Shown: positions 4,029 through 31,067 of the stretch, one piece after another | Numbering within the stretch: position 1 is the stretch's first letter | Layout: the number at the start of each line of letters is the position of its first letter | Sequence record: NC_028927.1 | DNA length: 64,000 nucleotides | Origin: Escherichia phage slur02 | Strand: one strand, 5' to 3' | Translations under genes and position numbers: made by a program | Notes under the pieces: generated by a model | Databases searched by the model: none | Told to the model about the DNA's origin: nothing | What the model saw: only the letters and a program-made list of their open reading frames with translations

Positions 4029-5443
<1,415 letters not shown>

Positions 5444-6814: not shown

Positions 6815-6842
6815 AAAGTCCTCATGTTATGTCAGTAAGATT

Positions 6843-6872
6843 ACTATAACACAACACGAGGGACTTGTAAAC
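6843..6872 (-). promoter_or_regulatory. T4-type early promoter (GTTTAC-N18-TATAGT)
   Basis: Minus-strand GTTTACaagtccctcgtgttgtgtTATAGT in the rnlA-alc gap (approx coords). Confidence 0.5.
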
Positions 6873-6875
6873 AGC

Positions 6876-8463
<1,588 letters not shown>

Positions 8464-8470
8464 AATAAAA

Positions 8471-8486
8471 TGGGCCTTGCGGCCCA
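8471..8486 (-). other. GC hairpin (TGGGCC-GCAA-GGCCCA) between nrdB stop and denA start
   Basis: Perfect 6 bp stem with tetraloop read directly; U-rich 3' flank on minus-strand RNA; lies within about 10 nt of the denA ATG. Confidence 0.5.
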
Positions 8487-8490
8487 CTCC

Positions 8491-12571: not shown

Positions 12572-12888
12572 AAGTCCTCAACTTGAAAATCGTCTTTAAA
12601 CAATCGGTTAACTATATGAGCTATTATATCACCATGACACGGCTTTGGTTTACATGTGCATCCTAGCCTCATTCCACGTAAAGGCTCTAAATGTGCTTTA
12701 GTTATTTCTCCGGATTTAATTCGACGTATAAAATCTTTTTTGAATAATTCAATGGCAGCCTCCCGGCTGCCAGCATCTTTACCGACGTGATTTCCCCAAA
12801 ATGTACCGCGGTGAATATTAACATCAAAGTCGGATTTGTATTTATTCACTACCCGGCATAGACGGCCCGGTTGGTAATAATTCTTCAT
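12562..12888 (-). CDS. hypothetical protein (108 aa)
   Basis: ORF track; overlaps nrdA start; position of T4 nrdA.x ORFs. Confidence 0.5.
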
Positions 12889-13105
12889 ATTGTTTTTCCG
12901 TTAATACAGTAATATCATAGTAACAATCGGAAGAAGTTTTAACTGTGGAAATTTTATTGTCAAAATACTCACGAGTCATTTTATGAGTATAGTATTTTTT
13001 ACCATAAATGGTAATAGGCTGTTCTGGTCCTGGAACTTCTAACTCGCTTGGGTTAGGAAGTGTAAAAAGAACGGCACCAGAAGTATCTTTAAATCGTAAA
13101 ATCAT
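12842..13105 (-). CDS. hypothetical protein (87 aa)
   Basis: ORF track; overlaps neighbours. Confidence 0.45.
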
Positions 13106-13962
13106 ATTGCCATTTTCCCTTTAATTGCTGGATGCGATTCATAATTTTCAAGGATAAAATCTTTCGGTTTCATGTATTCAGTTAACCAGTAAAGCTGTGT
13201 TTCGGTGTCACAATTTCCAAACTCTATAGGCCAATCAATTTTAAGTTCACACAGTTCTTTAGGCTCACGACGTAAAATTTCTTTACATTGCTCAGTATGA
13301 TTCATATAGATGTGAGTATTACCACCAGAAAATATCAAATCTCCTGGGATAAGATTACACATCTTAGCCACAATATGCGTCAAGGCAGCGTACGAGGCAA
13401 TGTTGAATGGCAAGCCCAAGAAAACATCTACACTTCTTTGGTACCATTGTAAATCAAGATAACCATTACGCACATTAAACTGATAGAACATATGACAGGG
13501 CGGTAATGCCATTTGATTGATTTCAGCTGGATTCCATGCTGAAACGATTTGACGTCGATCAGTTGGTAATTTTTTAATACGATCAATAGTTTCAACTAAT
13601 TGATCCACACCACCGAAATCACGCCATTGTTTACCGTATATAGGACCAAGTTCACCACTATGATATCCTAGGTCTTTAGCCTGGTTTTCATAGTTATCGT
13701 CCCAAATAGTTTTACCTTGAATAAGACTACCATGAGTGCGAAGACGTAAATCATTAACATTGGTAGAACCGGAAATAAACCATAAAAGCTCAGCAACGCA
13801 TGCATTCCAGGCGAGCTTCTTAGTTGTTACTGCAGGAAAACCTTTGGTTAAATCCCAACGCAATTTAGTACCGAACAGAGCAATTGTTCCTGTGCCCGTT
13901 CGGTCATCGGTTTCATAGCCATTTTCAAAAATGTCTTTAATTAAATCTTGGTATTGTTTCAT
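13102..13962 (-). CDS. td: thymidylate synthase (286 aa, intronless)
   Basis: 286 aa continuous ORF; ThyA-like sequence; no intron. Confidence 0.95.
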
Positions 13963-14006
13963 TTAGTACCTTATATAAATTATAATACATTTTATGAAGC
14001 TAATAA

Positions 14007-14354
14007 TTAATACGGTTTAGCATCAAATTTTCTCTCAATTTCAGGCGTGAAATATAATTCTTTACCGCGTTTGGAAAAGCGACCAATAATATGATAATTA
14101 TTCTCATCAAACGTAATATTACCAATATCCATAGCTTTCAACCAAATATCGATATTTCTATCCAGCTTTATGTCAAAATTCCAATACGGAGAACTATTAC
14201 CGAAAATACTACAAGCGGATTCAGTGAAACAGCTACTATAAATCTTGTCTTTAGGAACTACTAATTGATAGACACCTTTAATAAACTGAGGACCTTGCCA
14301 TTTTGGCTGTTTCTCGTCTTTTTCTAATAGAATAGGGTAATAATTAAAATTCAT
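14007..14354 (-). CDS. hypothetical protein (115 aa) inserted between td and frd
   Basis: ORF track; co-oriented; occupies a gap that is absent in T4, where frd and td overlap. Confidence 0.5.
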   Translation of the reverse strand: MNFNYYPILLEKDEKQPKWQGPQFIKGVYQLVVPKDKIYSSCFTESACSIFGNSSPYWNFDIKLDRNIDIWLKAMDIGNITFDENNYHIIGRFSKRGKELYFTPEIERKFDAKPY

Positions 14355-14373
14355 ATTTCCGCCACGCGTTATT

Positions 14374-15200
<827 letters not shown>

Positions 15201-15211
15201 ATTATCTCCTA

Positions 15212-15544
15212 TTAAAAAGGATCAGGAACATATCCGCTAGCTTTAATCATTTTAATTAACGTTAACATTCCTTTGTTAACTGCTCGTGAGATTTCATCAA
15301 AAACTTCATCACTAAAAAGTTCTAACACGCCCTTCTGAACTTTTAATTTACAGCCAACAATTTCTTCATCGCCTATAGTAAATTCATTACCACCAATTCC
15401 ACCGAAAAACTTAATTACACCAGTTAACTGTCTTCCACGAGAATATGGGTCGTGTGATAAAGTAATATGAGTCACCCCGGGTACAGTTTTAAATTGGCAG
15501 CGAATATTTACTTGTGAAATTCCAGTTACATGAATATCAGACAT
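15212..15544 (-). CDS. hypothetical protein (110 aa)
   Basis: ORF track. Confidence 0.5.
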   Translation of the reverse strand: MSDIHVTGISQVNIRCQFKTVPGVTHITLSHDPYSRGRQLTGVIKFFGGIGGNEFTIGDEEIVGCKLKVQKGVLELFSDEVFDEISRAVNKGMLTLIKMIKASGYVPDPF

Positions 15545-15554
15545 AATATTTTCC

Positions 15555-15797
15555 TCAAATAGACTTTTTCACAATTTTCCAATCAGCTTTAAACTGATCG
15601 ACGTCAGAGTGATAAATCCAAAATCCTGCGCTTTCTCCGTCTTCATAAAGAGGACATCCATCGCATTCATCTTCCCACCCCATATCGCGTAAAAGGTGTT
15701 CAGCTTTTTCAACAAGCTCAGAATCTTTACCGATGATATTAAAATACCATTTACCTCTAACTTCTGAATCTTTGATGCTCTGGCGTTGTAATCTCAT
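15555..15797 (-). CDS. hypothetical protein (80 aa)
   Basis: ORF track. Confidence 0.5.
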   Translation of the reverse strand: MRLQRQSIKDSEVRGKWYFNIIGKDSELVEKAEHLLRDMGWEDECDGCPLYEDGESAGFWIYHSDVDQFKADWKIVKKSI

Positions 15798-15908
15798 TTT
15801 ATTCTCCTTAGCAAGCTTTAATCAAAAGATATAAACAGACCAACATAACTGCTGCCATAATATAAGGTGCGAACATTTTCTTTTCTCCATTAGTTTTGAT
15901 AGGGTAAT

Positions 15909-15936
15909 AGTATCACACTACTACCCTTCTGTAAAC
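15909..15936 (-). promoter_or_regulatory. T4-type early promoter (GTTTAC-N18-TACTAT)
   Basis: Minus-strand GTTTACagaagggtagtagtgtgaTACTAT; the -35 overlaps the stop of the upstream ORF (approx coords). Confidence 0.5.
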
Positions 15937-16316
15937 TACTTTTTGAAAGTTTTTCGCAAAAGTTCAATGATTTCATCTACATTGTTTTCGTCAACAACGC
16001 AGTGAATTTTTGTTACGCCAGAAACCTTGTCTTTGACTTCATCTTCTTCAGAAGTCGGTTCTTTATACTCACGAAAACAATGAAATTCATCTTCGCAAAT
16101 TTCTAAAAGTCTATCTTTGAGGTAAAAATGCTTTCCATTTGCGCATTCAATGTGTTTTACTGCTTTATATCCATTAGCGACGGAAACTTCTTTAACTTCA
16201 AACCATCCGCCATTCTCTCGAATGGCTTTAACTATTGATGAATTAGAACGTGGGCTATAATTAATAAATGTATCAATAAGTCTTGGAACAAGTTCATACT
16301 TTTTACCGGTATACAT
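15936..16316 (-). CDS. hypothetical protein (126 aa)
   Basis: ORF track. Confidence 0.5.
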   Translation of the reverse strand: MYTGKKYELVPRLIDTFINYSPRSNSSIVKAIRENGGWFEVKEVSVANGYKAVKHIECANGKHFYLKDRLLEICEDEFHCFREYKEPTSEEDEVKDKVSGVTKIHCVVDENNVDEIIELLRKTFKK

Positions 16317-16360
16317 TACGGTTTCCTCATTTTAATAGGGGCTTGATAGCCCCTTGATAA

Positions 16361-16591
16361 TTATTGTTCAATCAGTCCCATGTAAAATTCTGCGTCTTCA
16401 GAATCCATGCCATCACAATATTCATTAGCCATAAAGCGGGTGAGGTCTTCAAGAGGACCTTCAATGACAATAGAAAAATTGCAATAATTGGGATCATCGT
16501 GAATACTTGTGATACTAAGCTCAGGATAACGATTACGAATAATTTCTTCAATATATTCAAAATCAACAATGTCAATATCAACTTTAGCCAT
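16361..16591 (-). CDS. hypothetical acidic protein (approx 76 aa)
   Basis: Track ORF 16361..16654 trimmed to the internal Met (MAKVDIDIV) preceded by AAGAGGAAAATAAT, because an early promoter occupies the 5' part of the track ORF. Confidence 0.45.
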
Positions 16592-16634
16592 ATTATTTTC
16601 CTCTTTAATCATCAGCAGTATTGCCGATAGTTGT

Positions 16635-16664
16635 ATAGTACCATGGAAGGACAAGGATGTAAAC
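16635..16664 (-). promoter_or_regulatory. T4-type early promoter (GTTTAC-N18-TACTAT)
   Basis: Minus-strand cGGTTTACatccttgtccttccatggTACTATAcaactatc; immediately downstream of the gene 32 terminator (approx coords). Confidence 0.55.
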
Positions 16665-16689
16665 CGTTTTGTGAAAAAATTTTTGAAAT

Positions 16690-16716
16690 AAAAAAGGGGA
16701 CCTCTAGGGTCCCCAA
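16690..16716 (-). terminator. rho-independent terminator after gene 32 (GGGGACC-CTAGA-GGTCCCC + T-run)
   Basis: Perfect 7 bp GC stem with T-run on minus strand, directly 3' of gene 32. Confidence 0.65.
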
Positions 16717-16736
16717 TTAATTAGTAATGTAATCTA

Positions 16737-17645
16737 TTAAAGGTCATTCAAAAGGTCATCTAGGTCCGTGTCATCAGCACTAGATGAACTACCAGAGCTT
16801 GAGCTCATAAAATCATCTTCAGTTTTTGTATTGAAGTCATCAACATTGAATGCATCCAAATCATCAGCAACTTTATCAGCTTTCTTAGCAGCAGTTGCAG
16901 CAGCACCGCCCATCACAGCAGTTCCCATAACTTGACCAAATTTAGTGCTCAGTTCTTCAAACGATTTGAATTTATCTTTAGAAGTCATTTCAGAAAGGTC
17001 AACCATTTGTTCGAACAGTTCTTTCTGGAAAGATTCATCATCAATGTTTGGAATCGCAGATTGATTCAGGAATTTAGATTCGTCGTAGTTACTAAATCCA
17101 GAAACTTGTTTAACTTTCAGTACAAAGTTAGCACCTTCCCACGGACAAGTTACATCAACTGGAGTTTCACCCATTTCAACATCAACCGCAATCATTGCAT
17201 TGATTTTATCCCAGATTTTCTTACCGAAACGGTATTTAAATACTTTACCTTCGTTTTCTGGAGCAGCTGGGTCTTTTACTACAAGAATGTTAGCCCAGTA
17301 AGAAGTTTTACGTTTAACAAGACTGTACTCTTTATTGTCAGTGTTGTACAGATCATTTTTACTGATGTACTGACATACTGGGCAAGAATCGTAATCACCG
17401 TGGGTAGATGAACAGTTTTCAATATACCATTTACCATTTTTCTTGAAACCGTGATTTACAAGAATTGCGAATGGTGCTTGTTCATCATTTTTAGACGGAA
17501 GAAAACGAATTACTGCTTGACCATTACCCGCATTGTCGAGTTTCAGTTTCCACTCGCCTTTATCTTCAGAAGAAAAACCACCTTTATTTCCAGCCAGTTT
17601 AGCCATTTGTGCAGCGAGTTCAGCAGTAGATTTACGTTTAAACAT
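16737..17645 (-). CDS. 32: gp32 single-stranded DNA-binding protein
   Basis: 302 aa ORF; gp32-like sequence with acidic Ser/Asp-rich C-terminal tail; synteny frd-32-59. Confidence 0.95.
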
Positions 17646-17700
17646 TTTTATTTCCTTTTTAATTTAATTAACAGTTGGTGCTATGACGATGTATGACCTC
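17646..17700 (-). promoter_or_regulatory. gene 32 translational operator (structured leader plus A/U-rich UUAAA repeats before the start codon)
   Basis: mRNA-sense ...gaggucauacaucgucauagcaccaacuguuaauuaaauuaaaaaggaaauaaaaAUG read directly; matches the known autoregulatory leader architecture of T4 gene 32. Confidence 0.6.
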
Positions 17701-17745
17701 ATAGCTGGTCAGTGAGATAATTATAATCTATTTATAATAAGCAAT
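17700..17745 (-). promoter_or_regulatory. overlapping late (TATAAATA) and middle (MotA box TTGCTTA, 12 bp spacer, TATAAT) promoters for gene 32
   Basis: Minus-strand aattGCTTAttataaatagatTATAATtatctc; TATAAATA present on the transcribed strand (approx coords). Confidence 0.5.
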
Positions 17746-18398
17746 TAATACTTGCAAGATTTCACAGTTTCAATGAAAACATTTTTAGCTTTCTGTGAAT
17801 CAATATTTAAAATTTTTCTATAAGCCTTTAACTTTATAGAATAATTATTCCAGACTAAATTATCAGTCTGTTCATCATGTTTATCAATTATATTTAAAAA
17901 CGAATCAAGCAAGATAAACGTCTCAAACGAAATTATGTTCGATTGCAGAAGTTTAAAAATATAACTTGACTGAACTTTTGGATTATATTCAAAGATTTCT
18001 TTAAAAGCAGAAACTTCAACTTTTTTACTAAAATAATAAATGTTGCGAATATCTTCTTCAAACTTAAATTTAATTTGCTTTAAGCGTCCGATATATTCAC
18101 GATAAAACACAAGTGCATCAGCGTCAGAGATGTCACCAATCCAAGCATCTTGGTTAGCAACAAGATTGCTTATAAAGATTAAAGCAAGTTCCTTTAATTT
18201 ATATTTTTCTGATAACTTCTGGAAAAAATACTTATCCCTTCGCTTTTGATAAGCGGCATCAGACACCCGCATGCACCAATTATACTTAATAACATCATAC
18301 TTTCCATTCATATGCTGTTTTATCATTAAGTATAATTTATAAACTGATTTACCATCAATGTATCTTTCACCACCAGCAGGCATGCGGAGTTTAATCAT
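17745..18398 (-). CDS. 59: gp59 helicase-loading protein (217 aa)
   Basis: 217 aa as T4 gp59; synteny 32-59-33. Confidence 0.9.
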   Translation of the reverse strand: MIKLRMPAGGERYIDGKSVYKLYLMIKQHMNGKYDVIKYNWCMRVSDAAYQKRRDKYFFQKLSEKYKLKELALIFISNLVANQDAWIGDISDADALVFYREYIGRLKQIKFKFEEDIRNIYYFSKKVEVSAFKEIFEYNPKVQSSYIFKLLQSNIISFETFILLDSFLNIIDKHDEQTDNLVWNNYSIKLKAYRKILNIDSQKAKNVFIETVKSCKY

Positions 18399-18733
18399 AG
18401 TAGAAAATCTAATGTATTAGTTTTTTCACAACGAACAACAGAAGGACGTAAAAGATTTTCGTCGATAGCTTCTGACTGAATTTTTTCAATTATACCCGAA
18501 GGAATAAATTTAGCAAATTGAGTTTCAGGAATAGAGTTTTCTTCCAAGAATGCTGTCGTAGCTTCAAGATAACTCATTCCAAACTCTTCTACCATTTTTT
18601 CAATAATAAATCCATTTTCTTGGCGGTCAAGAAGCTTTGCAATTTCATCCTTTTCTTTCTTAATTGAAAGTTCTTTTTCTGAAAGACCGGTCTCATCGAC
18701 CGGACGAATATCATTTAGAGAAAACTGTGTCAT
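18395..18733 (-). CDS. 33: gp33 late-transcription co-activator (approx 112 aa)
   Basis: Track ORF trimmed to Met4 (MTQFSL) to give the 112 aa of T4 gp33; synteny. Confidence 0.8.
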   Translation of the reverse strand: MTQFSLNDIRPVDETGLSEKELSIKKEKDEIAKLLDRQENGFIIEKMVEEFGMSYLEATTAFLEENSIPETQFAKFIPSGIIEKIQSEAIDENLLRPSVVRCEKTNTLDFLL

Positions 18734-18980
18734 AAAGTTCAACTACCTCTTCAGTTTCAGCTTCAAACACATCACGGTTATCTTTATGATACAAAGCTAA
18801 TAGACGATTAAACATCTTACCATCAACACCAAGTTCATCTTTGGCACGAATTCGAATATCTTTAATCAGTTCATTATAACCGGAAATTTTCAGTTTATGA
18901 TCAGATGCTTCTTTAATAAATTTAGCCAAGTCTTCGCCGTGGATAGCTTCATCAAATTCAACCATTTCTTTTTTAGCCAT
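18711..18980 (-). CDS. dsbA: DsbA dsDNA-binding late-transcription protein (89 aa)
   Basis: 89 aa; position between 33 and rnh as in T4. Confidence 0.8.
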   Translation of the reverse strand: MAKKEMVEFDEAIHGEDLAKFIKEASDHKLKISGYNELIKDIRIRAKDELGVDGKMFNRLLALYHKDNRDVFEAETEEVVELYDTVFSK

Positions 18981-18988
18981 TATTCACC

Positions 18989-19906
18989 TCAAAATTCATT
19001 AATGCTATTAGTTAATTTAGAAAGACCCGCTTTTACAAAATATGAATAAATTTTGCCACGCGGTGGTAATTTATATGAATTATAGTAATTCACAATGTTT
19101 GAAGCAATATTATCAGGAATATAATCAAAATCAATTAGAACTAAATTTTCTTTATAACGATTATATTCAGATTCTGTGAGAAGCACCTTAGCTTGCTCAC
19201 GGTCATTAGCAATAGCTTCAACGATTGAAGTTTTCATTGAAGGAGTTCGTTCACCTTCAACTCTGGTAAACCAAAAGTCAGATCGTACTTTAACTGAAGC
19301 AACGTTATCCTTTTTGTCGCCTTTAAGGATTTTAGTCATACAGTCAATTTCAGCAGAACCGCTTTTAATTTTAACCCATTTCTTATGCATCGGTGACCAT
19401 TGCTTAACATTTGGGTATTTGTGAAGCTGTGTAAAGTCACCATCCGATGAAATGATTAAAATCTTGTGTCCTTCTAAAGAGAACTTTTTAACAAGAACAG
19501 CAATGTGGTCATCTGCTTCATACTTATCAATATCCATAACAATGTATGGCATATAAGCTTTCAATTCATCTATAACTTTATGACTAGATTCAAAATAACC
19601 TTCCCAGTCCCAAGTCGATTCTTCTCGTGCTTTTCCACGGTTTTTCTTATAATAATAAGCAAAATCACGGCGCCAGTATCCAGATTTCGCGTTATCAATA
19701 CACAGTACAATTTTAGTGTATCCAAGCGTTTTTGCTTTTTTGACATTAAACTTAATTGAGTTCAATATCAAATGACGAACCATTGATAAATTAATTTTTT
19801 CTTTATCTGGGAAGTTTACCAAAGCAGTTGAAAGCGCAATTTGACTAAAGTCAATAAAGCAAATTCCTTCTTTGTAATCTTCATCCAGCATCATTTCTAA
19901 ATCCAT
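18989..19906 (-). CDS. rnh: RNase H / 5'-3' exonuclease (FEN family), approx 305 aa
   Basis: Start trimmed to Met6 (MDLEMML), preceded by GAGG; 305 aa as T4 Rnh; synteny. Confidence 0.9.
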   Translation of the reverse strand: MDLEMMLDEDYKEGICFIDFSQIALSTALVNFPDKEKINLSMVRHLILNSIKFNVKKAKTLGYTKIVLCIDNAKSGYWRRDFAYYYKKNRGKAREESTWDWEGYFESSHKVIDELKAYMPYIVMDIDKYEADDHIAVLVKKFSLEGHKILIISSDGDFTQLHKYPNVKQWSPMHKKWVKIKSGSAEIDCMTKILKGDKKDNVASVKVRSDFWFTRVEGERTPSMKTSIVEAIANDREQAKVLLTESEYNRYKENLVLIDFDYIPDNIASNIVNYYNSYKLPPRGKIYSYFVKAGLSKLTNSINEF

Positions 19907-19936
19907 ATGAACCTCGTTCAATTAGTGAGATTTCTA

Positions 19937-19965
19937 TTATATACCATCCAAATCTTAAAGTAAAC
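19937..19965 (-). promoter_or_regulatory. candidate early promoter for rnh (GTTTAC ... TATATAAT)
   Basis: Minus-strand GTTTACtttaagatttggatggTATATAATag; spacer length approximate. Confidence 0.45.
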
Positions 19966-19968
19966 AAG

Positions 19969-19976
19969 TATAAATA
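19969..19976 (+). promoter_or_regulatory. late promoter TATAAATA for gene 34
   Basis: Exact TATAAATA on + strand about 35 nt upstream of the gene 34 ATG. Confidence 0.6.
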
Positions 19977-20010
19977 CTTATTATTGAAAACACAATAGGA
20001 GCCCGGGAGA

Positions 20011-23000
20011 ATGGCCGAGATTAAAAGAAAGTTCAGAGCAGAAGACGGTCTGGACGCAGGTGGTGATAAAATAATCAACGTAGCTTTAGCTGATCGTACC
20101 GTAGGAACTGACGGTGTTAACGTTGATTACTTAATTCAAGAAAACACAGTTCAACAATACGATCCAACTCGTGGATATTTAAAAGATTTTGTAATCATTT
20201 ATGATAACCGCTTTTGGGCTGCTATAAATGATATTCCAAAACCGGCAGGAGCTTTTAATAGCGGACGCTGGAGAGCATTACGTACCGATGCTAACTGGAT
20301 TACGGTTTCATCTGGTTCATATCAATTAAAATCTGGTGAAGCTATTTCAGTTAACACCGCAGCTGGTAATGATATTACATTTACTTTACCATCTACCCCA
20401 ATTGATGGTGATACTATCGTTCTCCAAGATATTGGAGGAAAACCTGGAGTTAACCAAGTTTTAATTGTAGCTCCGGTGCAAAGTATTGTAAACTTTAGAG
20501 GTGAACAGGTACGTTCAGTACTAATGACTCATCCAAAGTCACAGCTAGTTTTAATTTTTAGTAATCGTCTGTGGCAAATGTATGTTGCTGATTATAGCAG
20601 AGAAGCTGTAGTTGTAACACCAGCAAGTCTATATCAGGCGCAATCTAATGATTTTATCGTACGTAGATTTACTTCTGCTGCACCGATAAATATTAAACTT
20701 CCAAGATTTGCTAATCACGGCGATATTATTAATTTCGTCGATTTGGACAAATTAAATCCACTTTATCATACAATTGTTACTACATACGATGAAACTACTT
20801 CAATACAAGAAGATGGAACTCATTCTATTGAAGGCCGTACATCGATTGACGGTTTCTTGATGTTTGATGATAATGAGAAATTGTGGAGATTGTTTGACGG
20901 GGATAGTAAAGCACGTTTACGCATTATAACGACTAATTCTAATATTCGTCCAAACGAAGAAGTTATGGTATTTGGTGCGAATAACGGAACAACTCAAACA
21001 ATTGAGCTTCAGCTTCCAACTAATATTTCTGTTGGTGATACTGTTAAAATTTCCATGAATTACATGAGAAAAGGACAAACAGTTAAAATCAAAGCTGCAG
21101 GTGAAGATAAAATTGCTTCTTCAGTTCAATTGCTGCAATTCCCAAAACGTTCAGAATATCCGCCTGAAGCTGAATGGGTGACTGTTCAAGAATTAGTTTT
21201 TAACGGTGAAACTAATTATGTTCCAGTTTTACAACTTGCTTATATAGAAGATTCTGACGGAAAATACTGGGTTGTACAACAAAACGTTCCAACCGTAGAA
21301 AGAGTTGATTCTTTAAATGATTCTACTAGAGCAAGATTAGGCGTAATTGCTTTAGCTACACAGGCTCAAGCTAACGTCGATTTAGAAAATTCTCCACAAA
21401 AAGAATTAGCAATTACTCCAGAAACATTAGCTAACCGTACTGCTACAGAAACTCGTAGAGGTATCGCAAGAATAGCAACTACTGCTCAAGTGAATCAGAA
21501 CACCACATTCTCTTTTGCTGATGATATTATCATCACTCCTAAAAAGCTGAATGAAAGAACTGCTACAGAAACTCGCAGAGGTGTTGCAGAAATTGCTACT
21601 CAGCAAGAAACAAACGCAGGAACAGATGATACAACCATCATTACTCCTAAAAAGCTTCAAGCTCGTCAAGGTTCTGAATCATTATCTGGTATTGTAACTT
21701 TTGTATCTACTGCAGGTGCTACTCCAGCTTCTAGCCGTGAATTAAATGGTACGAATGTTTATAATAAAAACACTAATAATTTAGTTGTTTCGCCAAAAGC
21801 TTTGGATCAATATAAAGCTACTCCAACGCAACAAGGTGCAGTAATTTTAGCAGTTGAAAGTGAAGTAATTGCTGGACAAAGCCAAGAAGGATGGGCAAAT
21901 GCGGTTGTAACGCCAGAAACGTTACATAAAAAGACATCAACTGATGCAAGAATTGGTTTAATTGAAATTGCTACGCAAAGTGAAGTTAATACAGGAACTG
22001 ATTATACTCGTGCAGTCACTCCTAAAACTTTAAATGACCGTAGAGCAACTGAAAGTTTAAGTGGTATAGCTGAAATTGCTACACAGGTTGAATTCGACGC
22101 AGGCGTCGACGATACTCGTATCTCTACACCATTAAAAATTAAAACCAGATTTAATAGTACTGATCGTACTTCTGTTGTTGCTCTATCTGGATTAGTTGAA
22201 TCAGGAACTCTCTGGGACCATTATACCCTTAATATTCTTGAAGCAAATGAGACACAGCGTGGTACACTTCGTGTAGCTACACAAGTTGAAGCTGCTGCAG
22301 GAACATTAGATAATGTTTTAATAACTCCTAAAAAGCTTTTAGGTACTAAATCTACTGAAGCACAAGAAGGTGTTATTAAAGTTGCAACTCAGTCTGAAAC
22401 TGTGACTGGAACGTCAACAAATACTGCTGTATCTCCAAAAAATTTAAAATGGATTGTGCAGAGTGAACCTACTTGGGCAGCTACTACTGCAATAAGAGGT
22501 TTTGTTAAAACTTCATCTGGTTCAATTACATTCGTTGGTAATGATACAGTCGGTTCTACACAAGATTTAGAACTGTATGAGAAAAATAGCTATGCAGTAT
22601 CACCATATGAATTAAACCGTGTATTAGCAAATTATCTGCCGTTAAAAGCAAAAGCTGTAGATAGTAATTTATTGGATGGTCTAGATTCATCTCAGTTCAT
22701 TCGTAGGGATATTGCACAGACGGTTAATGGTTCACTAACCTTAACCCAACAAACGAATCTGAGTGCCCCTCTTGTATCATCTAGTACTGCTACGTTCGGT
22801 GGATCAGTCACAGCAAATAGTACATTAACTATTTCTAATACTGGTACGTCTTCTTCTCGATTTACATTTGAGAAGGGTCCTGCTTCTGGTAGTAATGCTG
22901 ATTCTGCACTGCATGTTCGTGTATGGGGTAATAAGTACAGCGGCGGTTCTGATGTAACTCGCGCAACGATTATAGAATTCTATGATGCATCCGGCACTCA

Positions 23001-23883
23001 TTTCTATTCTCAAAGAGATACGTCAAATAATGTGTTGTTCAACATTTTAGGTACGATGCAATCAGTCCATGCTAACGTTCGTGGTGTTCTGAACGTTACA
23101 GGTGTCTCAACGTTTAATAGTTCAGTTACTGCTAATGGCGAATTTATCAGTAAATCGTCGAATGCTTTTAGAGCAATAAATGGTGATTATGGATTCTTTA
23201 TTCGCAATGATGGATCAGTAACGAATTTTATGCTTACTGCATCCGGTGATCAGACCGGTGGATTTAATGGATTACGTCCTTTATCTATTAATAATGCATC
23301 TGGTCAAGTAACGATTGGTGAAAGCTTAATCATTGCCAAAGGTGCTACTATAAGTTCAGGTGGTTTGACTGTTAACTCGAGAATTCGTTCTCAAGGTACT
23401 AAAACTTCTGATTTATACACTCGTGCGCCAACGTCTGATACTGTAGGATTCTGGTCAATCGATATTAATGATTCAGCTACTTATAACCAGTTCCCAGGTT
23501 ATTTTAAAATGGTTGAAAAAACTAATGAAGTGACTGGGCTTCCATACTTAGAACGTGGCGAAGAAGTTAAATCTCCTGGTACATTGACTCAGTTTGGTAA
23601 CACACTTGATTCGCTTTACCAAGATTGGATTACTTATCCAACGACTCCAGAAGCACGTACCACTCGCTGGACACGTACATGGCAGAAAACCAAAAACTCT
23701 TGGTCAAGTTTTGTTCAGGTATTTGATGGAGGTAACCCTCCTCAGCCGTCTGATATCGGTGCTTTACCATCTGATAATGCTACAATGGGGAATCTTACTA
23801 TTCGTGATTTCTTACGAATTGGTAATGTTCGCATTATTCCTGACCCAGTGAATAAAACGGTTAAATTTGAATGGGTTGAATAA
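20011..23883 (+). CDS. 34: gp34 long tail fiber proximal subunit (1290 aa)
   Basis: 1290 aa (T4 gp34 is 1289); internally repeated modules (TATETRRG..IAT, IEIATQSE, etc.); first gene of the 34-38 fiber operon. Confidence 0.95.
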   Translation: MAEIKRKFRAEDGLDAGGDKIINVALADRTVGTDGVNVDYLIQENTVQQYDPTRGYLKDFVIIYDNRFWAAINDIPKPAGAFNSGRWRALRTDANWITVSSGSYQLKSGEAISVNTAAGNDITFTLPSTPIDGDTIVLQDIGGKPGVNQVLIVAPVQSIVNFRGEQVRSVLMTHPKSQLVLIFSNRLWQMYVADYSREAVVVTPASLYQAQSNDFIVRRFTSAAPINIKLPRFANHGDIINFVDLDKLNPLYHTIVTTYDETTSIQEDGTHSIEGRTSIDGFLMFDDNEKLWRLFDGDSKARLRIITTNSNIRPNEEVMVFGANNGTTQTIELQLPTNISVGDTVKISMNYMRKGQTVKIKAAGEDKIASSVQLLQFPKRSEYPPEAEWVTVQELVFNGETNYVPVLQLAYIEDSDGKYWVVQQNVPTVERVDSLNDSTRARLGVIALATQAQANVDLENSPQKELAITPETLANRTATETRRGIARIATTAQVNQNTTFSFADDIIITPKKLNERTATETRRGVAEIATQQETNAGTDDTTIITPKKLQARQGSESLSGIVTFVSTAGATPASSRELNGTNVYNKNTNNLVVSPKALDQYKATPTQQGAVILAVESEVIAGQSQEGWANAVVTPETLHKKTSTDARIGLIEIATQSEVNTGTDYTRAVTPKTLNDRRATESLSGIAEIATQVEFDAGVDDTRISTPLKIKTRFNSTDRTSVVALSGLVESGTLWDHYTLNILEANETQRGTLRVATQVEAAAGTLDNVLITPKKLLGTKSTEAQEGVIKVATQSETVTGTSTNTAVSPKNLKWIVQSEPTWAATTAIRGFVKTSSGSITFVGNDTVGSTQDLELYEKNSYAVSPYELNRVLANYLPLKAKAVDSNLLDGLDSSQFIRRDIAQTVNGSLTLTQQTNLSAPLVSSSTATFGGSVTANSTLTISNTGTSSSRFTFEKGPASGSNADSALHVRVWGNKYSGGSDVTRATIIEFYDASGTHFYSQRDTSNNVLFNILGTMQSVHANVRGVLNVTGVSTFNSSVTANGEFISKSSNAFRAINGDYGFFIRNDGSVTNFMLTASGDQTGGFNGLRPLSINNASGQVTIGESLIIAKGATISSGGLTVNSRIRSQGTKTSDLYTRAPTSDTVGFWSIDINDSATYNQFPGYFKMVEKTNEVTGLPYLERGEEVKSPGTLTQFGNTLDSLYQDWITYPTTPEARTTRWTRTWQKTKNSWSSFVQVFDGGNPPQPSDIGALPSDNATMGNLTIRDFLRIGNVRIIPDPVNKTVKFEWVE

Positions 23884-23891
23884 GAGGTATT

Positions 23892-25007
23892 ATGGAAAAA
23901 TTTATGGCAGAGTTTGGACAAGGATATGTCCAAACGCCATTTTTATCGGAAAGTAATTCAGTAAGATATAAAATAAGTATAGCGGGTTCTTGCCCGCTTT
24001 CTACGGCAGGACCATACGTTAAATTTCAGGATAATCCTGTCGGAAGTCAAACATTTAGCGCAGGTCTTCATCTAAGAGTTTTTGACCCTTCCACCGGAGC
24101 ATTAGTTGATAGTAAGTCATATGCTTTTTCGACTTCAAATGATACTACATCAGCTGCTTTTGTTAGTTTCATGAATTCTTTGACGAATAACAGACTTGTT
24201 GCTATATTAACTAGCGGAAAGGTTAATTTTCCTCCTGAAGTAGTATCTTGGTTAAGAGCTGCAGGAACGTCTGCTTTTCCATCTGATTCTATATTGTCAA
24301 GATTTGACGTATCATATGCTGCTTTTTACACTTCTTCTAAAAGAGCTATTGCATTGGAGCATGTTAAACTAAGTAATAGAAAAAGCACAGATGACTATCA
24401 AACTATTTTAGATGTTGTATTTGACAGTTTAGAAGACGTTGGAGCTACCGGGTTTCCAAGAAGAACATATGAAAGCGTTGAGCAATTTATGTCGGCAGTT
24501 GGCGGAACTAATAACGAAATTGCACGTCTACCAACTTCAGCTGCGATAAGTAAATTATCTGACTATAATTTAATCCCTGGTGATGTTCTTTATCTTAAAG
24601 CACAGTTATATGCTGATGCCGATTTACTTGCGCTTGGAACTACAAATATATCTATCCGTTTTTATAATGCATCGAATGGATATATTTCCTCGACACAAGC
24701 TGAGTTTACCGGGCAAGCTGGGTCTTGGGAATTAAAGGAAGATTATGTGGTTGTTCCAGAAAACGCTGTCGGATTTACGATATATGCACAAAGAACAGCA
24801 CAAGCGGGTCAAGGCGGTATGAGAAATTTAAGCTTTTCTGAAGTGTCAAGAAATGGTGGCATTTCAAAACCTGCTGAGTTTGGCGTCAATGGTATTCGAG
24901 TTAATTATATCTGTGAATCTGCTTCACCTCCGGATATAATGGTACTTCCTACACAAGCATCGTCTAAAACTGGTAAAGTGTTTGGGCAAGAATTTAGAGA
25001 AGTATAA
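23892..25007 (+). CDS. 35: gp35 long tail fiber hinge/connector (371 aa)
   Basis: Size and position as T4 gp35; SD AAGAGG upstream. Confidence 0.9.
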   Translation: MEKFMAEFGQGYVQTPFLSESNSVRYKISIAGSCPLSTAGPYVKFQDNPVGSQTFSAGLHLRVFDPSTGALVDSKSYAFSTSNDTTSAAFVSFMNSLTNNRLVAILTSGKVNFPPEVVSWLRAAGTSAFPSDSILSRFDVSYAAFYTSSKRAIALEHVKLSNRKSTDDYQTILDVVFDSLEDVGATGFPRRTYESVEQFMSAVGGTNNEIARLPTSAAISKLSDYNLIPGDVLYLKAQLYADADLLALGTTNISIRFYNASNGYISSTQAEFTGQAGSWELKEDYVVVPENAVGFTIYAQRTAQAGQGGMRNLSFSEVSRNGGISKPAEFGVNGIRVNYICESASPPDIMVLPTQASSKTGKVFGQEFREV

Positions 25008-25012
25008 ATTGA

Positions 25013-25036
25013 GGGAGCCTTCGGGTTCCCTTTTTC
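25013..25036 (+). terminator. rho-independent terminator after gene 35 (GGGAGCC-TTCG-GGTTCCC + TTTTT)
   Basis: Hairpin plus T-run on + strand read directly. Confidence 0.6.
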
Positions 25037-25038: not shown

Positions 25039-25046
25039 TATAAATA
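25039..25046 (+). promoter_or_regulatory. late promoter TATAAATA for gene 36
   Basis: Exact TATAAATA about 24 nt upstream of the gene 36 ATG. Confidence 0.6.
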
Positions 25047-25069: not shown

Positions 25070-25732
25070 ATGGCTGATTTAAAAGTAGGTTCAACAACTG
25101 GAGGCTCTGTCATTTGGCATCAAGGAAATTTTCCATTGAATCCAGCCGGTGACGATGTACTCTATAAATCATTTAAAATATATTCAGAATATAATAAACC
25201 ACAAGCTGCTGATAACGATTTCGTTTCTAAAGCTAATGGTGGTACTTACGCCGCGACCGTTCGATTTAATGGAGGAGTACATGTTCCTACTATAGGTAGT
25301 AGTCAACAGTGCGGTGTTTATCCAGGTAACGGTGATGCAGCTACTTTTGCTATGGCAAATATTGACATCGTTTCATGGAATGGTATTGGTTTTAAATCAT
25401 CACAAGGTTCAGCAGACCGAACTGTTGTAATTAATGCACGTAATGGTGATATTAGTACAAAAGGCGTTGTGACAGCAGTAGGTCAAATAAGAAGTAATGC
25501 AGTTTCTCCTGTATCAGCAAATGACCTTACTAGAAAGGACTATGTTGATGGAGCAATAAATACTGTTACGGCAAATGCGAACTCTAGAGTGTTACGATCT
25601 GGCGACACTATGACGGGTAACTTAACCGCACCAAACTTTTTCTCGCAGAATCCCGCATCTCAACCTTCACATGTTCCACGATTTGACCAAATCGTAATTA
25701 AGGATTCTGTTCAAGATTTCGGCTATTATTAA
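25070..25732 (+). CDS. 36: gp36 long tail fiber distal connector (220 aa)
   Basis: Size and position as T4 gp36. Confidence 0.9.
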
Positions 25733-25740: not shown

Positions 25741-28700
25741 ATGGCTACTTTAAAACAAATACAATTTAAAAGAAGCAAAACCGCAGGTGCACGTCCTGCT
25801 GCTTCAGTATTAGCCGAAGGTGAATTGGCTATAAACTTAAAAGATAGAACAATTTTTACTAAAGATGATTCAGGAAATATCATCGATCTAGGTATTGCTA
25901 AAGGCGGTCAAATTGATGGAAATGTAACTATCAATGGTCTTTTGAGGTTAAACGGTGATTATGTACAAACAGGTGGAATGACCGTAAATGGACCTATTGG
26001 TTCTACTGATGGCGTAACTGCAAAAGTTTTCAGATCTACACAGGGTTCATTTTATGCAAGAGCAACAAACGATACTGCAAATGCCCATCTTTGGTTTGAA
26101 AATACAAATGGCTCAGAACGTGGCGTTTTATATTCAAAACCGCAGTCTGAAAATGAAGGCGTAATTACAATGCGTGTTCGTCAAGGAACCGCTGCGGGAG
26201 CTCAAAATTCAGAATTTCATTTCATTTCTACTGATGGAGGTATCTTCCAGGCACGTAAGTTAACTGCTTTAACTTCTATTAGTACACCAACTATTAGTGT
26301 TAATTTAATTAATCATGATTCTAAATCATTTGGACAATACGATTCACAATCTTTGGTTAACTATGTTTATCCTGGAACCGGTGAAACAAATGGTGTAAAC
26401 TATCTTCGTAAAGTTCGCGCTAAGTCCGGTGGTACAATTTATCATGAAATTGTTACTGCCCAAACAGGCCTGGCTGATGAAGTTTCTTGGTGGACTGGTA
26501 ATACACCATTATTTAAACTATACGGTATTCGTAACGACGGTAGAATGATTATCCGCAATAGTTTGGCCATTGGTACTGTGACACAAGGGTTTCCGTCAAG
26601 TGATTATGGCAATGTTGGGGCACTAGGAAATATATTTCTTGCTTTAGGTGATAATGGAACTGGTCTAGTTTATAGAAAAACCGGGGTATTTGATTTCGTT
26701 GGTTCTGGTTTATCTTTGGCATCTATTACTCCTGATAGTTTCCGTAGTACCCGTAAAGCAATTTTTGGTCGTTCCGAGGACCAAGGTACAACATGGATTA
26801 TGCCTGGCACTAATGCTGCTTTCTTGTCTGTTCAAACACAAGCTGATGAAAACACTGCTGGAGATGGTCAAACCCATATTGGATATAATTCTGGCGGAAA
26901 AATGAACCACTATTTCCGTGGTAAAGGCAAGACTAATATTAATACTCAAGAAGGCATGGAAGTTAATCCGGGTATTTTGAAATTGGTAACTGGCTCTAAT
27001 AACGTACAGTTTTATGCTGACGGAACAGTATCTTCAATACAAAGAATTAAATTTGATAACGGATTAGTTCTTACTGGTGCTAGACCCGACGGTATTCAAC
27101 TTGACGCTCCTACAACAACAGATGGCACTAAAACTATATTGTGGGCCGGCGGTACTCGCCCAGGTCAGAATAAAAGTTATCTATCTATCAAAGCATGGGG
27201 TAACGCCTTTAACACATCTGGCGATCGCGCTCGTGAATCAGTTTTTGAAGTAGCTGATGGACAAGGTTATTATTTTTATGCGCAGCGTGTAGCTCCTGCG
27301 GCAGGTTCAACAACTGGAGTAGTTCAATTCAGAATTGCTGGAGCATTATTAACTGGTGGGGGTATTACATCATCTGGTTCTATTGTTACTGAATCAAGTT
27401 TAGTTGCCAATAATGGCATGTCAGTAAATGGTCAGGCTAAATTTGGCGGAACAGCAAACGCATTGAGAATTTGGAACGCCGAATATGGCGCTATTTTCCG
27501 TCGTTCAGAAAGTAACTTTTATATTATTCCAACCAATCAAAATGAAGGCGAAAGTGGAGACATTCACAGCTCTTTAAGACCTGTTAGAATAGGATTAAGC
27601 GATGGCATGGTTGGGTTAGGAAGAGATTCTTTTATAGTAGATCAAAATAATGCTTTAACTACTATAAACAGTAACTCTCGCATTAATGCCAACTTTAGAA
27701 TGCAATTGGGGCAGTCGACATATATTGATGCAGAATGCACTGATGCCGTTCGTCCAGCCGGTGCAGGTTCATTTGCTTCGCAAAATAATGAAAACGTCCG
27801 TGCTCCGTTCTATATGAATATTAATCGCACAGATACAAGTACTTACGTTCCAATTGTTAAACAGAGATACGTACAAAATAATAGTTGCTATTCTATTGGT
27901 ACTTTAATTAATGGCGGTAATTTTAGAGTTCATTATCATGAAGGTGGTGATGGCGGTTCAACTGGTGCGATTATAAAGGATTTAGGCTGGGAATTTAACA
28001 AAAATGGTGATTTTTACTCTCCTGGTAAATTAGGTGCTGGAAATATTCGTATCGGAACAGACGGTAATATTACCGGTGGTTCTGGTAACTTTGCTAACCT
28101 AAATACGACTTTAAACCGTAAAGTAACTACCGGCTGGATTAACTATTCTTCTGTAAGCGGTTGGTATAAATTGGCAACAGTAACTATGCCTCAAGGTGTA
28201 GCTACGGTCCAATTTAAAATAACAGGCGGTTCCGGTTTTAACGTTGGTATTTTCGAACAAGCAACAATTAATGAAATTGTATTACGTTCTGGTAATAATA
28301 CACCTAAAGGAATTAACGGTGTTTTGTGGCAACGTGAAACAGATGCTATTAAAGATATTGCGTATATTAATACCTCAGGCGATGAGTATGATGTTTATAT
28401 TAGTTGTGGCACTTATTTAAATAGACTTACCATAGAATATAGCACTTCAGAAAATGCTTCTGTGGTAGTTCATGGATTATATGGGCCTACGCAATCACCG
28501 GTAGAAGAGCTTCCTGTAGATATTGTTAAAGGTCGTGTTTTTAAACTTCTTAATAATAGCTCAGGCGTTTTTGACGCGGGTAGTTCTAATATTTCTACAA
28601 ATGCAACTTTTGTGGCAAATACTACTATAGGATACCGTCACAAATCTAACGGCGACGAAAGTGGCTCTGCAGCTGCTCTGTTTTATAATGATGGTACTAC

Positions 28701-29562
28701 GTTCCACATATTATTAACAGATAAAAATACCGATACTGATAAAACTAAAGCCTCGGGTTCTTATAATAGCTTGAGACCTTTTTCTATCAATATCGCTTCA
28801 GGTAAAGTAACTATTTCAAACTCTATGAGCGTTTCTGGGGTATCAGAGTTTTATAATGGCCTTAACATCAAAAATAATGGAAGCATTAACTTTGATAAGT
28901 CTGGTGCTAACCCGAGAAATATGAGAATATTTCATGCTGGCGATGCTTCTCGCGGTAACCGCATTGAAATTGCAGATGAAACTAACTATATTGCTTACTT
29001 TGAAAAAACTCCAGGTGGAGCTAACCGCTTTGTAGTAAATAATGCTACTGTAGCTGGTGTTAATCAAATGAATTCATTTGGTATTAACATCAATAACGCG
29101 CTTGGTGGAAATAGTATAGCATTTGGTGATAATGACACAGGTATTAAGCAAAACGGCGATGGATTATTAGACATTTATGCGAATGGTGTGCAAACGTTCC
29201 GTTTTCAAAACGGTGATTTGTACTCATATAAAAATATAAATGCCCCAAACGTTTATATTCGTTCTGATATTCGCTTAAAATCTAATTTCAAACCTATCGA
29301 AAATGCACTTGATAAAGTTGAAAAACTCAATGGTGTCATTTATGATAAAGCTGAATACATCGGTGGAGAGGCAATTGAAACTGAAGCGGGTATTGTAGCT
29401 CAAACGTTACAAGACGTTTTACCAGAAGCCGTCCGTGAAACAGAAGACAGCAAGGGTAATAAAATACTCACTGTTTCTTCTCAAGCCCAGATTGCTCTTC
29501 TGGTTGAAGCTGTGAAAACGCTTTCTTCTCGTGTAAAAGAACTTGAATCTAAACTTATGTAA
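25741..29562 (+). CDS. 37: gp37 long tail fiber distal subunit with C-terminal intramolecular chaperone domain (1273 aa precursor)
   Basis: Position after 36; C-terminal approx 98 aa shows the autoproteolytic chaperone signature S-D-x-x-x-K (SDIRLK) and helical tail. Confidence 0.9.
29266..29559 (+). other. predicted self-cleaving C-terminal intramolecular chaperone domain of gp37 (cleavage after Ser1175)
   Basis: [32 protein letters not shown]... resembles peptidase S74/endosialidase-type chaperone domains; T2 gp37 is known to be C-terminally processed. Confidence 0.6.
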
Positions 29563-29566
29563 AAGA

Positions 29567-29590
29567 GGGCTTCGGCCCTCTAAGGATTTT
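29567..29590 (+). terminator. weak terminator-like hairpin (AGAGGGC-TTCG-GCCCTCT) between 37 and 38
   Basis: Hairpin read directly; 3' T-run is interrupted (aaggattttt), so readthrough is likely. Confidence 0.4.
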
Positions 29591-29592
29591 TA

Positions 29593-30378
29593 ATGGCAAT
29601 TGTAGGTGTTCCTGGCTGGATTGGTGAATCTGCCGTGAATGAAACTGGACAACGTTGGATGGATGCTGCAATGAGAGCAGTCCGTGTTTCAGTTCCCGGT
29701 TGGATGAGCTCAATGGCCGGACAATCTAAAGAAGTATATTATAGCATTGGTGCTAGTAATTCTTATAATAAAGATACATTAATAAACTGGATAAAAGCCC
29801 AAGGCAGTACTCCTGTTGTTATTACTATTACAGGAAATATTGTTTCTCAATCTACTGGTGTTCCATGCTTAGATTTTCCTAGCTCATTAACTAATGCATA
29901 CGTGACACTTAATATCAATTCAGGCGTGCATGTTTGGGGCCGTGGCGGGAATGGCGGAAATAACTCTGCCGGTGGAGCAGGAGGAACTGCAATAAATAAT
30001 GGAATTGGAACTAGATTGCGTATTAACAACAATGGTGTTATCGCAGGAGGCGGTGGAGGCGGTGGAGGCGGATATTATTCTCCTTTTTCACAAATGAAAT
30101 TGACTTTTGGCGGTGGCGGCGGTCGTCCATTTGGTGCTGCTGGCGGGTCTGCTAATATGGAACAGGGCGCTACTGCTGGTACTATTTCTGCACCTGGTAA
30201 AGGGTCTGTCAATGGTATCTATAATGGCGGGAATGGCGGTGATGCTGGTGCCGCAGGTGGTAAATGTAATATTCGTGGGCAAGGATCAGAATATAACGGC
30301 GGTGCGGCCGGTAAAGCTGTTACTGGTAATGCTCCAACTTGGACTAAGGTTGGTACAATATATGGTTCAAGAGTATAA
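29593..30378 (+). CDS. 38: gp38 receptor-binding adhesin, T2-type with glycine-rich motifs (261 aa)
   Basis: Conserved N-terminus MAIVGVPGWIG; several poly-Gly motifs (GGGGGGGGGYY, FGGGGGRPFG) separated by variable segments; 261 aa versus 183 aa T4 gp38. Confidence 0.85.
   Translation: MAIVGVPGWIGESAVNETGQRWMDAAMRAVRVSVPGWMSSMAGQSKEVYYSIGASNSYNKDTLINWIKAQGSTPVVITITGNIVSQSTGVPCLDFPSSLTNAYVTLNINSGVHVWGRGGNGGNNSAGGAGGTAINNGIGTRLRINNNGVIAGGGGGGGGGYYSPFSQMKLTFGGGGGRPFGAAGGSANMEQGATAGTISAPGKGSVNGIYNGGNGGDAGAAGGKCNIRGQGSEYNGGAAGKAVTGNAPTWTKVGTIYGSRV
30046..30072 (+). repeat. 9-bp tandem repeat (ggaggcggt)x3 encoding poly-Gly in gp38
   Basis: Read directly; second shorter Gly-codon tract at approx 30109-30123. 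Confidence 0.7.
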
Positions 30379-30410: not shown

Positions 30411-31067
30411 ATGGCAGCACCTAGAATATCATTTTCGCCCTCTGATATTCTATTTGGTGTTCTAGATCGCTTGTTCAAAGATAACGCTACCGGGAAAGTT
30501 CTTGCTTCCCGGGTAGCTGTCGTAATTCTTTTATTTATGATGGCGATTGTTTGGTATAGGGGAGATAGTTTCTTTGAGTACTATAAGCAATCAAAGTATG
30601 AAACATACAGTGAAATTATTGAAAAGGAAAGAAATGCACGCTTTGAATCTGTCGCCCTGGAACAACTCCAGATAGTTCATATATCATCTGAGGCAGACTT
30701 TAGTGCGGTGTATTCTTTCCGCCCTAAAAACTTAAACTATTTTGTTGATATTATAGCATACGAAGGAAGATTACCTTCAACAATAACTGAAAAATCACTT
30801 GGAGGATATCCTGTTGATAAAACTATGGATGAATATATAGTTCATTTAAATGGACGTCATTATTATTCTGACTCAAAATTTGCTTTTTTACCAACTAAAA
30901 AGCCTACTCCCGAAATAAACTACATGTACAGTTGTCCATATTTTAATTTGGATAATATCTATGCTGGAACGATAACCATGTACTGGTATAGAAATGATCA
31001 TATAAGTAATGACCGCCTTGAATCAATATGCGCTCAGGCGGCCAGAATATTAGGAAGGGCTAAATAA
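30411..31067 (+). CDS. t: holin T (218 aa)
   Basis: 218 aa; single N-terminal TM segment and large periplasmic domain; follows gene 38 as in T4. Confidence 0.9.
   Translation: MAAPRISFSPSDILFGVLDRLFKDNATGKVLASRVAVVILLFMMAIVWYRGDSFFEYYKQSKYETYSEIIEKERNARFESVALEQLQIVHISSEADFSAVYSFRPKNLNYFVDIIAYEGRLPSTITEKSLGGYPVDKTMDEYIVHLNGRHYYSDSKFAFLPTKKPTPEINYMYSCPYFNLDNIYAGTITMYWYRNDHISNDRLESICAQAARILGRAK

Follow-up and report, generated by a model that had tools for sequence, protein, structure and literature searches.

Genes 37 and 38 of Escherichia phage slur02, which encode the end of its long tail fiber, lie side by side in the 64,000-nucleotide stretch of sequence record NC_028927.1 analyzed here (the window, to which all positions below refer; features are collected in Table 1). 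Together, the 2 genes very probably specify a fiber end of the kind described for phages T2, T6, and S16, in which the distal subunit gp37 cuts off its own C-terminal chaperone domain and is then capped by a separate adhesin, gp38, binding in this case to Tsx. As far as sequence can show, the 2 proteins have every defining feature of the Peptidase_S74 (S74) and gp38 adhesin families. The interpretation is supported, and what it describes is already known: biochemical knowledge of the architecture dates from 1986 and structural knowledge from 2018, the receptor bound by precisely this adhesin sequence has twice been identified, in other phages, and we see no departure from the described T2/T6/S16 system. 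An earlier reading of the DNA without database searches (the original prediction) had arrived at a T2-type module with a gp37 of 1,273 and a gp38 of 261 amino acids, and these lengths and their coordinates agree exactly with the open reading frames.

The identity of gp38 as an adhesin follows from matches along its entire length. It covers the full Pfam profiles GP38 (PF05268, positions 1 to 218 of 218, E = 3.5e-72) and Gp38_N (PF21721, positions 1 to 40 of 40, E = 8.2e-18), belongs to phrog_2056 (E = 2.3e-105), and aligns over residues 8 to 259 with the S16 adhesin in the solved structure 6F45 (chain D, E = 2.7e-49). Glycine makes up 23% of the protein and 34% of residues 115 to 261, with runs at G152 to G160 and G173 to G177, and because gp38 is so glycine-rich the G+C content rises locally to 0.41 to 0.46 at its gene. 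By alignment to S16, the C-terminal domain would fold as a polyglycine-II sandwich.

Conservation along gp38 was examined in 21 distinct full-length homologs, with variable segments defined by a smoothed entropy above 1.6 bits. This yielded the 4 hypervariable segments listed in Table 1 and a minor one at residues 123 to 127. Within the C-terminal domain the 36 conserved-glycine columns have a mean entropy of 0.13 bits, versus 1.77 bits in the other 110 columns. The N-terminus is conserved as well (mean entropy 0.94), with W9 and W22 nearly invariant across the same homologs and W9, W22, and W37 all invariant among the window, T6, T2, and S16. It is through tryptophans at the tips of 3 N-terminal helices that gp38 attaches, as a monomer (PMC6851490). 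The entropy pattern fits the scheme of glycine-rich motifs (GRM) and hypervariable segments (HVS) already described for gp38 (PMC3157838), and it bears out the original prediction of a conserved N-terminus followed by polyglycine motifs that are separated by variable segments. That these segments determine host range, which had been proposed there as likely, is established by experiment in the literature (PMC3157838; bioRxiv 10.64898/2026.04.02.716166).

Scans of viral contigs recovered 26 related loci, 6 with a single gp38 query and 22 with a four-sequence profile. Eight of them (L021, L023 to L027, L029, and L030) encode gp38 homologs of only 160 to 174 amino acids that keep the N-terminal attachment domain, carry a short and different C-terminal domain, and also keep the upstream S74-bearing gp37. 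These short homologs probably place a different adhesin head on the shared dock, corresponding to the RB43-like type of PMC3157838.

The 2 ends of gp38 have different affinities. Residues 1 to 46 are 98% identical to T2 and 65% to T6, whereas residues 161 to 240 are 70% to 90% identical to T6 and only 23% to 45% to T2; for residues 161 to 261 as a whole the values are 79% and 46%, respectively. The T2 affinity claimed in the original prediction therefore stands for the N-terminus and fails for the receptor-binding loops, which are T6-like. The crossover between the 2 falls within about residues 100 to 160, where all 3 proteins are similarly conserved. The N-terminus of gp38 is of a T2-, T6-, or K3-like subtype and always occurs with the gp37 C-terminus that matches it, while the variable loops follow receptor specificity (PMC3157838). 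The window fits this lock-and-key rule in that its gp37 C-terminus and its gp38 N-terminus are both of the T2 subtype.

The expected primary receptor of this phage, going by its adhesin sequence, is Tsx. The gp38 protein is 100% identical to those of FriedrichMiescher (Bas39), Shigella phage JK38, JK1, teqhal, teqsoen, and others. For Bas39 the primary receptor is Tsx and the terminal receptor the lipopolysaccharide deep core (PMC8594841, supplementary file 5), and for a phage named JK38 random barcode transposon-site sequencing (RB-TnSeq) gave Tsx/Kdo (bioRxiv 10.64898/2026.04.02.716166). It is on this identity to phages with experimentally demonstrated Tsx use that the assignment is based, and not on similarity to T6, the classic Tsx phage, to whose variable loops those of the window are related as given above. 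A different primary receptor, or one used in addition to Tsx such as OmpA, so that Tsx alone would be insufficient to account for host range, is a possibility that we regard as unlikely. In its favor, a few changes in T6-like loops can add recognition of OmpA or of Yersinia, as in phage PST compared with T6 (PMC3157838), the loops here are close to those of T6 without being identical, and some Tevenvirinae show residual plating without their primary receptor (PMC8594841); against it stand the 2 phages with the identical gp38 in which Tsx was found experimentally by independent methods. Predicted Tsx dependence would be useful in choosing phages for cocktails, since resistance through loss of tsx would be shared with T6-like phages.

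The partner of this adhesin, gp37, ends in an intramolecular chaperone domain. The Pfam profile Peptidase_S74 (PF13884) matches residues 1175 to 1232 from its first to its last position (1 to 58 of 58, E = 3.3e-15, 56.5 bits against a cutoff of 22), and the match begins exactly at Ser1175, the first residue of SDIRLK (residues 1175 to 1180). This is the sole S-D-x3-K in gp37. The bare motif is not significant, since about 0.3 chance occurrences are estimated for the length of gp37 and an unrelated second copy (SDTGIK) is present in T2 gp37, 44 residues upstream of its real motif; we count SDIRLK as real because of the profile match. From Ser1175 to the end of gp37 there are 99 residues (98 beyond the serine), in keeping with the domain of about 98 amino acids claimed in the original prediction, for which a profile search against S74 had been proposed and has now come out positive.

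Alignments place the putative catalytic residues in the same frame. In a phmmer search of the PDB, Ser1175 and Lys1180 align with SDRRIK of S16 gp37 (6F45_A) and with the S74 domain of human MYRF (7DC3); S1175, D1176, R1178, and K1180 are invariant among the window, T6, T2, and S16, and the S-x4-K spacing is that of Ser1264/Lys1269 in T5 (PMC4690869). The S74 domain occupies the last 99 residues of the distal fiber subunit, the residues before it align to the gp37 beta-helix of 6F45_A, and it differs from the T2 domain at 1 of 99 positions. K1F endosialidase and T5 chaperone structures were not recovered when the last 139 residues of gp37 were searched against the PDB with phmmer at E<=1, and that search gave only S16 gp37, MYRF, and chance matches to influenza haemagglutinin HA2. 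Because their structures were missed, the link to K1F and T5 is drawn from the Pfam profile and the literature. Among the 26 loci plus T2, T6, and S16, there were 28 for which the gene directly preceding the gp38 homolog could be recovered, and every one of these 28 genes ends in ...YIR^SDxxxK (the caret marking the cut) or one of the variants NVS^SD, YVR^SD, and YLT^SD, 94 to 117 residues before the stop. This count includes loci with the short (about 172 amino acids) gp38 homolog and its different C-terminal domain.

We infer that the chaperone is released autoproteolytically, with a predicted cut at Arg1174^Ser1175 that would leave a mature gp37 of 1,174 residues and a fragment of 99. In S16, the chaperone is reported to be autocleaved between 2 serines once gp37 has trimerized, at DLNVS^SDRRIKK, which uncovers the docking surface for gp38, and the aligned sequence of related Yersinia phages is DVYIR^SDGRLKI (PMC7917993, citing Dunne et al. 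2018); the window has NVYIR^SDIRLKS. In T5 pb1 the Thr1263-Ser1264 bond is cut by the Ser1264/Lys1269 dyad and the serine leaves with the chaperone, a cut pattern also seen in K1F endosialidase (PMC4690869). The cut is placed between Arg1174 and Ser1175 because those in S16 and T5 precede the catalytic serine. Cleavage after Ser1175, as the original prediction had it, is one bond off from the position expected on this evidence (PMC7917993, PMC4690869). A passage in PMC3157838 citing Drexler et al. 1986 has the gp37 C-terminus of T2 and T6 proteolytically cleaved, followed by capping with gp38.

The S74 domain could instead be an inactive remnant, with the C-terminus of gp37 retained and gp38 attached elsewhere or not at all. 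That S-D-x3-K motifs can arise by chance, as the second one in T2 gp37 illustrates, and that cleavage in this phage is predicted from homologs would both be compatible with such a remnant. We nevertheless consider it very improbable, given a full-length profile match far above the Pfam cutoff, the invariant Ser, Asp, Arg, and Lys, the motif in 28 of 28 loci, and a domain that is all but the same as that of T2, whose gp37 is reported to be processed.

Upstream of its chaperone, gp37 changes character along its length. Homology to T4 gp37, at 76% identity over residues 1 to 791, reaches T4 residue 802 and breaks off there, immediately ahead of the tip with which T4 binds its receptor, and together with the S74 domain this indicates a T4-like shaft on which a T2-type ending has taken the place of the T4 tip. 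Residues 51 to 200 are much nearer to T4 than to T2, and between about residues 751 and 1100 identity to T2 is 20% to 62% in 50-residue windows. Farther on, residues 1101 to 1174 are 70% to 98% identical to T2 and align to S16 gp37 (6F45_A), and the last 173 residues are 98% to 100% identical to those of T2 gp37 (residues 1101 to 1273 are elsewhere given as 70% to 100%). The DVYIR strand, the equivalent of NVYIR, has been described as the gp38 docking site (PMC7917993). Judged by these identities, the module is a mosaic of a T4-like shaft, a T2-type tip and chaperone, a T2-like gp38 N-terminus, and T6-like loops; a T2-type dock with T6-type loops is a sort of modular reassortment that is already documented.

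Two further segments of the shaft have relatives elsewhere. Residues 462 to 670 (positions 27124 to 27750) are homologous to the C-terminal region of gp34, matching PF21446 (Gp34_trimer) and PDB entry 5NXF (E = 1.7e-13); gp34 and gp37 therefore have a common fiber module. A module at about residues 800 to 936 (about 28140 to 28550) is found at 40% to 47% identity in tail fibers of unrelated phage groups, namely those of Moogle and KEP2 (both about 86 kb), several Salmonella phages of about 86 to 90 kb, and Cyrano (about 108 kb), and it also matches phrog_21552 and phrog_3299, both of unknown function.

The arrangement of T4 itself, in which gp38 is an assembly chaperone outside the virion and the gp37 C-terminus binds the receptor, has the T4-like shaft and GenBank labels such as "assembly catalyst" and "tail assembly protein" on identical or near-identical gp38 proteins to recommend it, but it is effectively refuted and the least credible reading of all, because T4 gp38 has no similarity to the gp38 of the window (E = 19), the latter is a full-length member of the adhesin family that matches the solved S16 adhesin, the T4 tip domains Collar and Phage_fiber are absent from a gp37 that instead carries the S74 domain shared with T2 and T6 and missing from T4, and a PDB search with this gp37 gave no T4 gp37 chain, the sole distal-subunit match being S16 6F45_A. 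The T2-type assignment of the original prediction is confirmed on these same grounds.

For the self-cleaving gp37 capped by gp38, we infer a course of events that extends beyond the domain memberships, the dyad alignment, the identities to T2, T6, and T4, and the gp38 identity. Genes 36, 37, and 38 would probably be transcribed late as a unit. Three 1,273-residue gp37 chains would then fold, with guidance from the 99-residue S74 domains at their own C-termini, into a trimeric beta-helical fiber, and after correct formation of the helix the dyad of Ser1175 and Lys1180 would cut the Arg1174-Ser1175 bond in every chain. Departure of the chaperone trimer would expose the ...NVYIR end of mature gp37 (1,174 residues), on which one gp38 could dock via its N-terminal helical domain, with W9, W22, and W37 entering 3 equivalent pockets. 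The glycine-rich C-terminal domain would serve as a rigid scaffold carrying the variable loops, and the loops at residues 160 to 171, 185 to 195, 203 to 211, and 223 to 236 would bind the primary receptor Tsx, the outer-membrane nucleoside channel of E. coli.

Several points weigh against this reading. Cleavage, the 3:1 ratio of gp37 to gp38, and Tsx use are all transferred from identical or near-identical homologs, and we found no experiment on slur04, a phage with the same module (see below), that bears on them. The exact scissile bond is not agreed across the literature. The fold proposed for gp38 derives from the 6F45_D alignment over residues 8 to 259 rather than from a structure model, and the identity of the JK38 of the preprint with GenBank MK962755 is not confirmed by accession number. 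Finally, GenBank labels for the identical gp38 vary among "distal long tail fiber assembly catalyst," "Phage tail assembly protein," "tail fiber adhesin," "receptor-recognizing protein," and "hypothetical protein"; those that speak of assembly appear to be carried over from the unrelated gp38 of T4. For annotation, the analysis suggests that gp38 be called an adhesin, not an "assembly catalyst," and that mature gp37 be given as residues 1 to 1174.

Genes 36, 37, and 38 are probably one late transcription unit read from the motif TATAAATA at 25039. On the + strand near the module this T4-type late promoter motif occurs at 19969, before gene 34, and at 25039, before gene 36, and none was found before gene 38. 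Because TATAAATA is not enriched in the window, where its count is not above chance, the late-promoter assignment is positional only. A scan for sigma-70 promoters around the module found 45 versus 39.6 +/- 5.1 in shuffled sequence, which is no excess.

The spacer between gp37 and gp38 holds a GC-rich C(UUCG)G hairpin, ahead of the gp38 Shine-Dalgarno sequence AAGGA at about 29583 to 29587. Its folding energy is not exceptional on its own (z = -1.47). In single-sequence folds, a hairpin at the same position with differing stem sequences is present in nearly all spacer-bearing relatives, including T2, T6, and S16, and only loci in which the stop codon of gp37 and the ATG of gp38 overlap (L011, L020, and L022) lack it. 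RNAalifold recovered only 4 pairs from these intergenic hairpins because their stem lengths and registers differ. CUUCGG hairpins are said to have been first noted in intercistronic regions of T4 by Tuerk and colleagues in 1988. The hairpin is probably a generic T4-type intercistronic element; a dedicated regulator, such as a partial terminator or a processing or stability signal that would lower gp38 relative to gp37 in keeping with a 1:3 ratio at the tip, seems rather doubtful. A second UUCG hairpin followed by a run of T lies directly after gp35 at 25011 to 25032, ahead of the TATAAATA at 25039.

The module belongs to a group of fiber genes on the + strand in the order gp34-gp35-gp36-gp37-gp38-holin t. 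Its DNA is 100% identical to that of Escherichia phages slur04, slur11, and slur13 (species Tequatrovirus slur02), as are window positions 1 to 20000 and 40000 to 64000, and the deposited records of slur04, slur11, and slur13 are circular permutations of a single genome. The genome was published in 2015 from a phage isolated from dairy cow slurry on E. coli K-12 MG1655 (PMC4698387). RefSeq (NC_042130) already labels the 2 genes "long tail fiber protein distal subunit" and "tail fiber protein; host specificity." The 64-kb window contains no tRNA genes detectable by ARAGORN and no Rfam families at the gathering threshold. In the hinge protein gp35, residues 58 to 123 match Pfam ILEI (PF15711, "Interleukin-like EMT inducer"; E = 4.9e-8, 33.8 bits against a cutoff of 27), a domain otherwise named for animal proteins. 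A "GG domain" common to phage gp35 and FAM3-type proteins has reportedly been described.

Table 1. Positions of the tail fiber genes, protein regions, and putative expression signals in the window.
Feature	Position	Strand	Basis
gp34	20011-23883	+	
gp35	23892-25007	+	
T4-type late promoter motif TATAAATA upstream of gene 36 (putative)	25039-25046	+	position only
gp36	25070-25732	+	
Gene 37, distal subunit of long tail fiber, 1273-aa precursor	25741-29562 (with stop)	+	open reading frame; phrog_1699, E = 0, residues 1-1273; RefSeq NC_042130
gp37 residues 1-791, T4-like shaft	25741-28113	+	76% identity to T4 gp37 residues 1-802
gp37 residues 792-1100, divergent distal shaft	28114-29040	+	20-62% identity to T2
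gp37 residues 1101-1174, T2-type distal tip ending NVYIR, predicted gp38 docking surface	29041-29262	+	T2 identity; 6F45_A alignment
gp37 residues 1175-1273, Peptidase_S74 intramolecular chaperone domain	29263-29559	+	PF13884; T2 identity; 28 loci
SDIRLK codons, predicted catalytic dyad Ser1175 (29263-29265) and Lys1180 (29278-29280)	29263-29280	+	alignments
C(UUCG)G hairpin between gp37 stop and gp38 Shine-Dalgarno	29564-29581	+	fold, -13.4 kcal/mol
Gene 38, monomeric tail-fiber tip adhesin, 261 aa	29593-30378 (with stop)	+	open reading frame; Pfam; PHROG; 6F45_D
gp38 residues 1-42, N-terminal attachment domain, T2 subtype, W9/W22/W37	29593-29718	+	PF21721; T2 identity
gp38 residues 116-261, glycine-rich receptor-binding domain, T6-like loops	29938-30375	+	6F45_D alignment; T6 identity; entropy
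Span of the four hypervariable segments, predicted Tsx-contacting loops	30070-30300	+	entropy; segment roles from PMC3157838, bioRxiv 10.64898/2026.04.02.716166
gp38 hypervariable segment, residues 160-171	30070-30105	+	
gp38 hypervariable segment, residues 185-195	30145-30177	+	
gp38 hypervariable segment, residues 203-211	30199-30225	+	
gp38 hypervariable segment, residues 223-236	30259-30300	+	
Holin t	30411-31067	+	

Among known systems, the chaperones of K1F endosialidase and T5 pb1 belong to the same Pfam family, PF13884, as the gp37 C-terminus, and in them an S-x4-K dyad stands at the start of a C-terminal domain that aids folding of a trimeric beta-helix and then releases itself (PMC4690869). 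The sequence similarity to them is distant, however, the chaperone has 99 residues here and 133 in T5, and its removal here would expose a dock for a separate adhesin instead of a receptor-binding tip. T4 has the same gene order (34-35-36-37-38-t) and a closely related gp37 shaft, but its gp37 lacks S74 and ends in a collar, needle, and head receptor-binding tip (Collar, PF07484; Phage_fiber, PF03335), and its gp38 is an unrelated assembly factor of 183 amino acids.

In the architecture solved for S16 (6F45), gp37 is a trimeric beta-helix whose chaperone is autocleaved, and gp38 is a monomer made up of a helical attachment domain, a beta-helix, and a polyglycine-II sandwich. Besides the gp38 alignment, gp37 residues 1117 to 1271 align to it (E = 2e-11). 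S16 differs in belonging to the genus Gelderlandvirus, in a gp38 that is 49% identical, in its cleavage context (NVS^SD versus YIR^SD here), and in its receptor, Salmonella OmpC going by the title of Marti et al. 2013 as listed in PMC7917993. With T6 (MH550421) the module has in common a gp38 of 261 amino acids, whose receptor-binding half is as much as 90% identical in some 20-residue windows, the (here expected) receptor Tsx, and a gp37 ending in VYIR^SDSRLK followed by the S74 domain, but T6 gp37 has 994 amino acids, is 28% identical overall, and carries a chaperone of 113 residues. T2 (AP018813) has the same gene order and spacing, S74 at the equivalent position, the sequence NVYIR^SDIRLK with a 99-residue chaperone, and nearly the same gp37 end and gp38 N-terminus. 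It departs from the module in the gp38 loops and in its receptor, FadL (PMC8594841), where Tsx is expected here, and in a gp37 that is 68 residues longer than that of the window and divergent over residues 51 to 200 and 751 to 1100.

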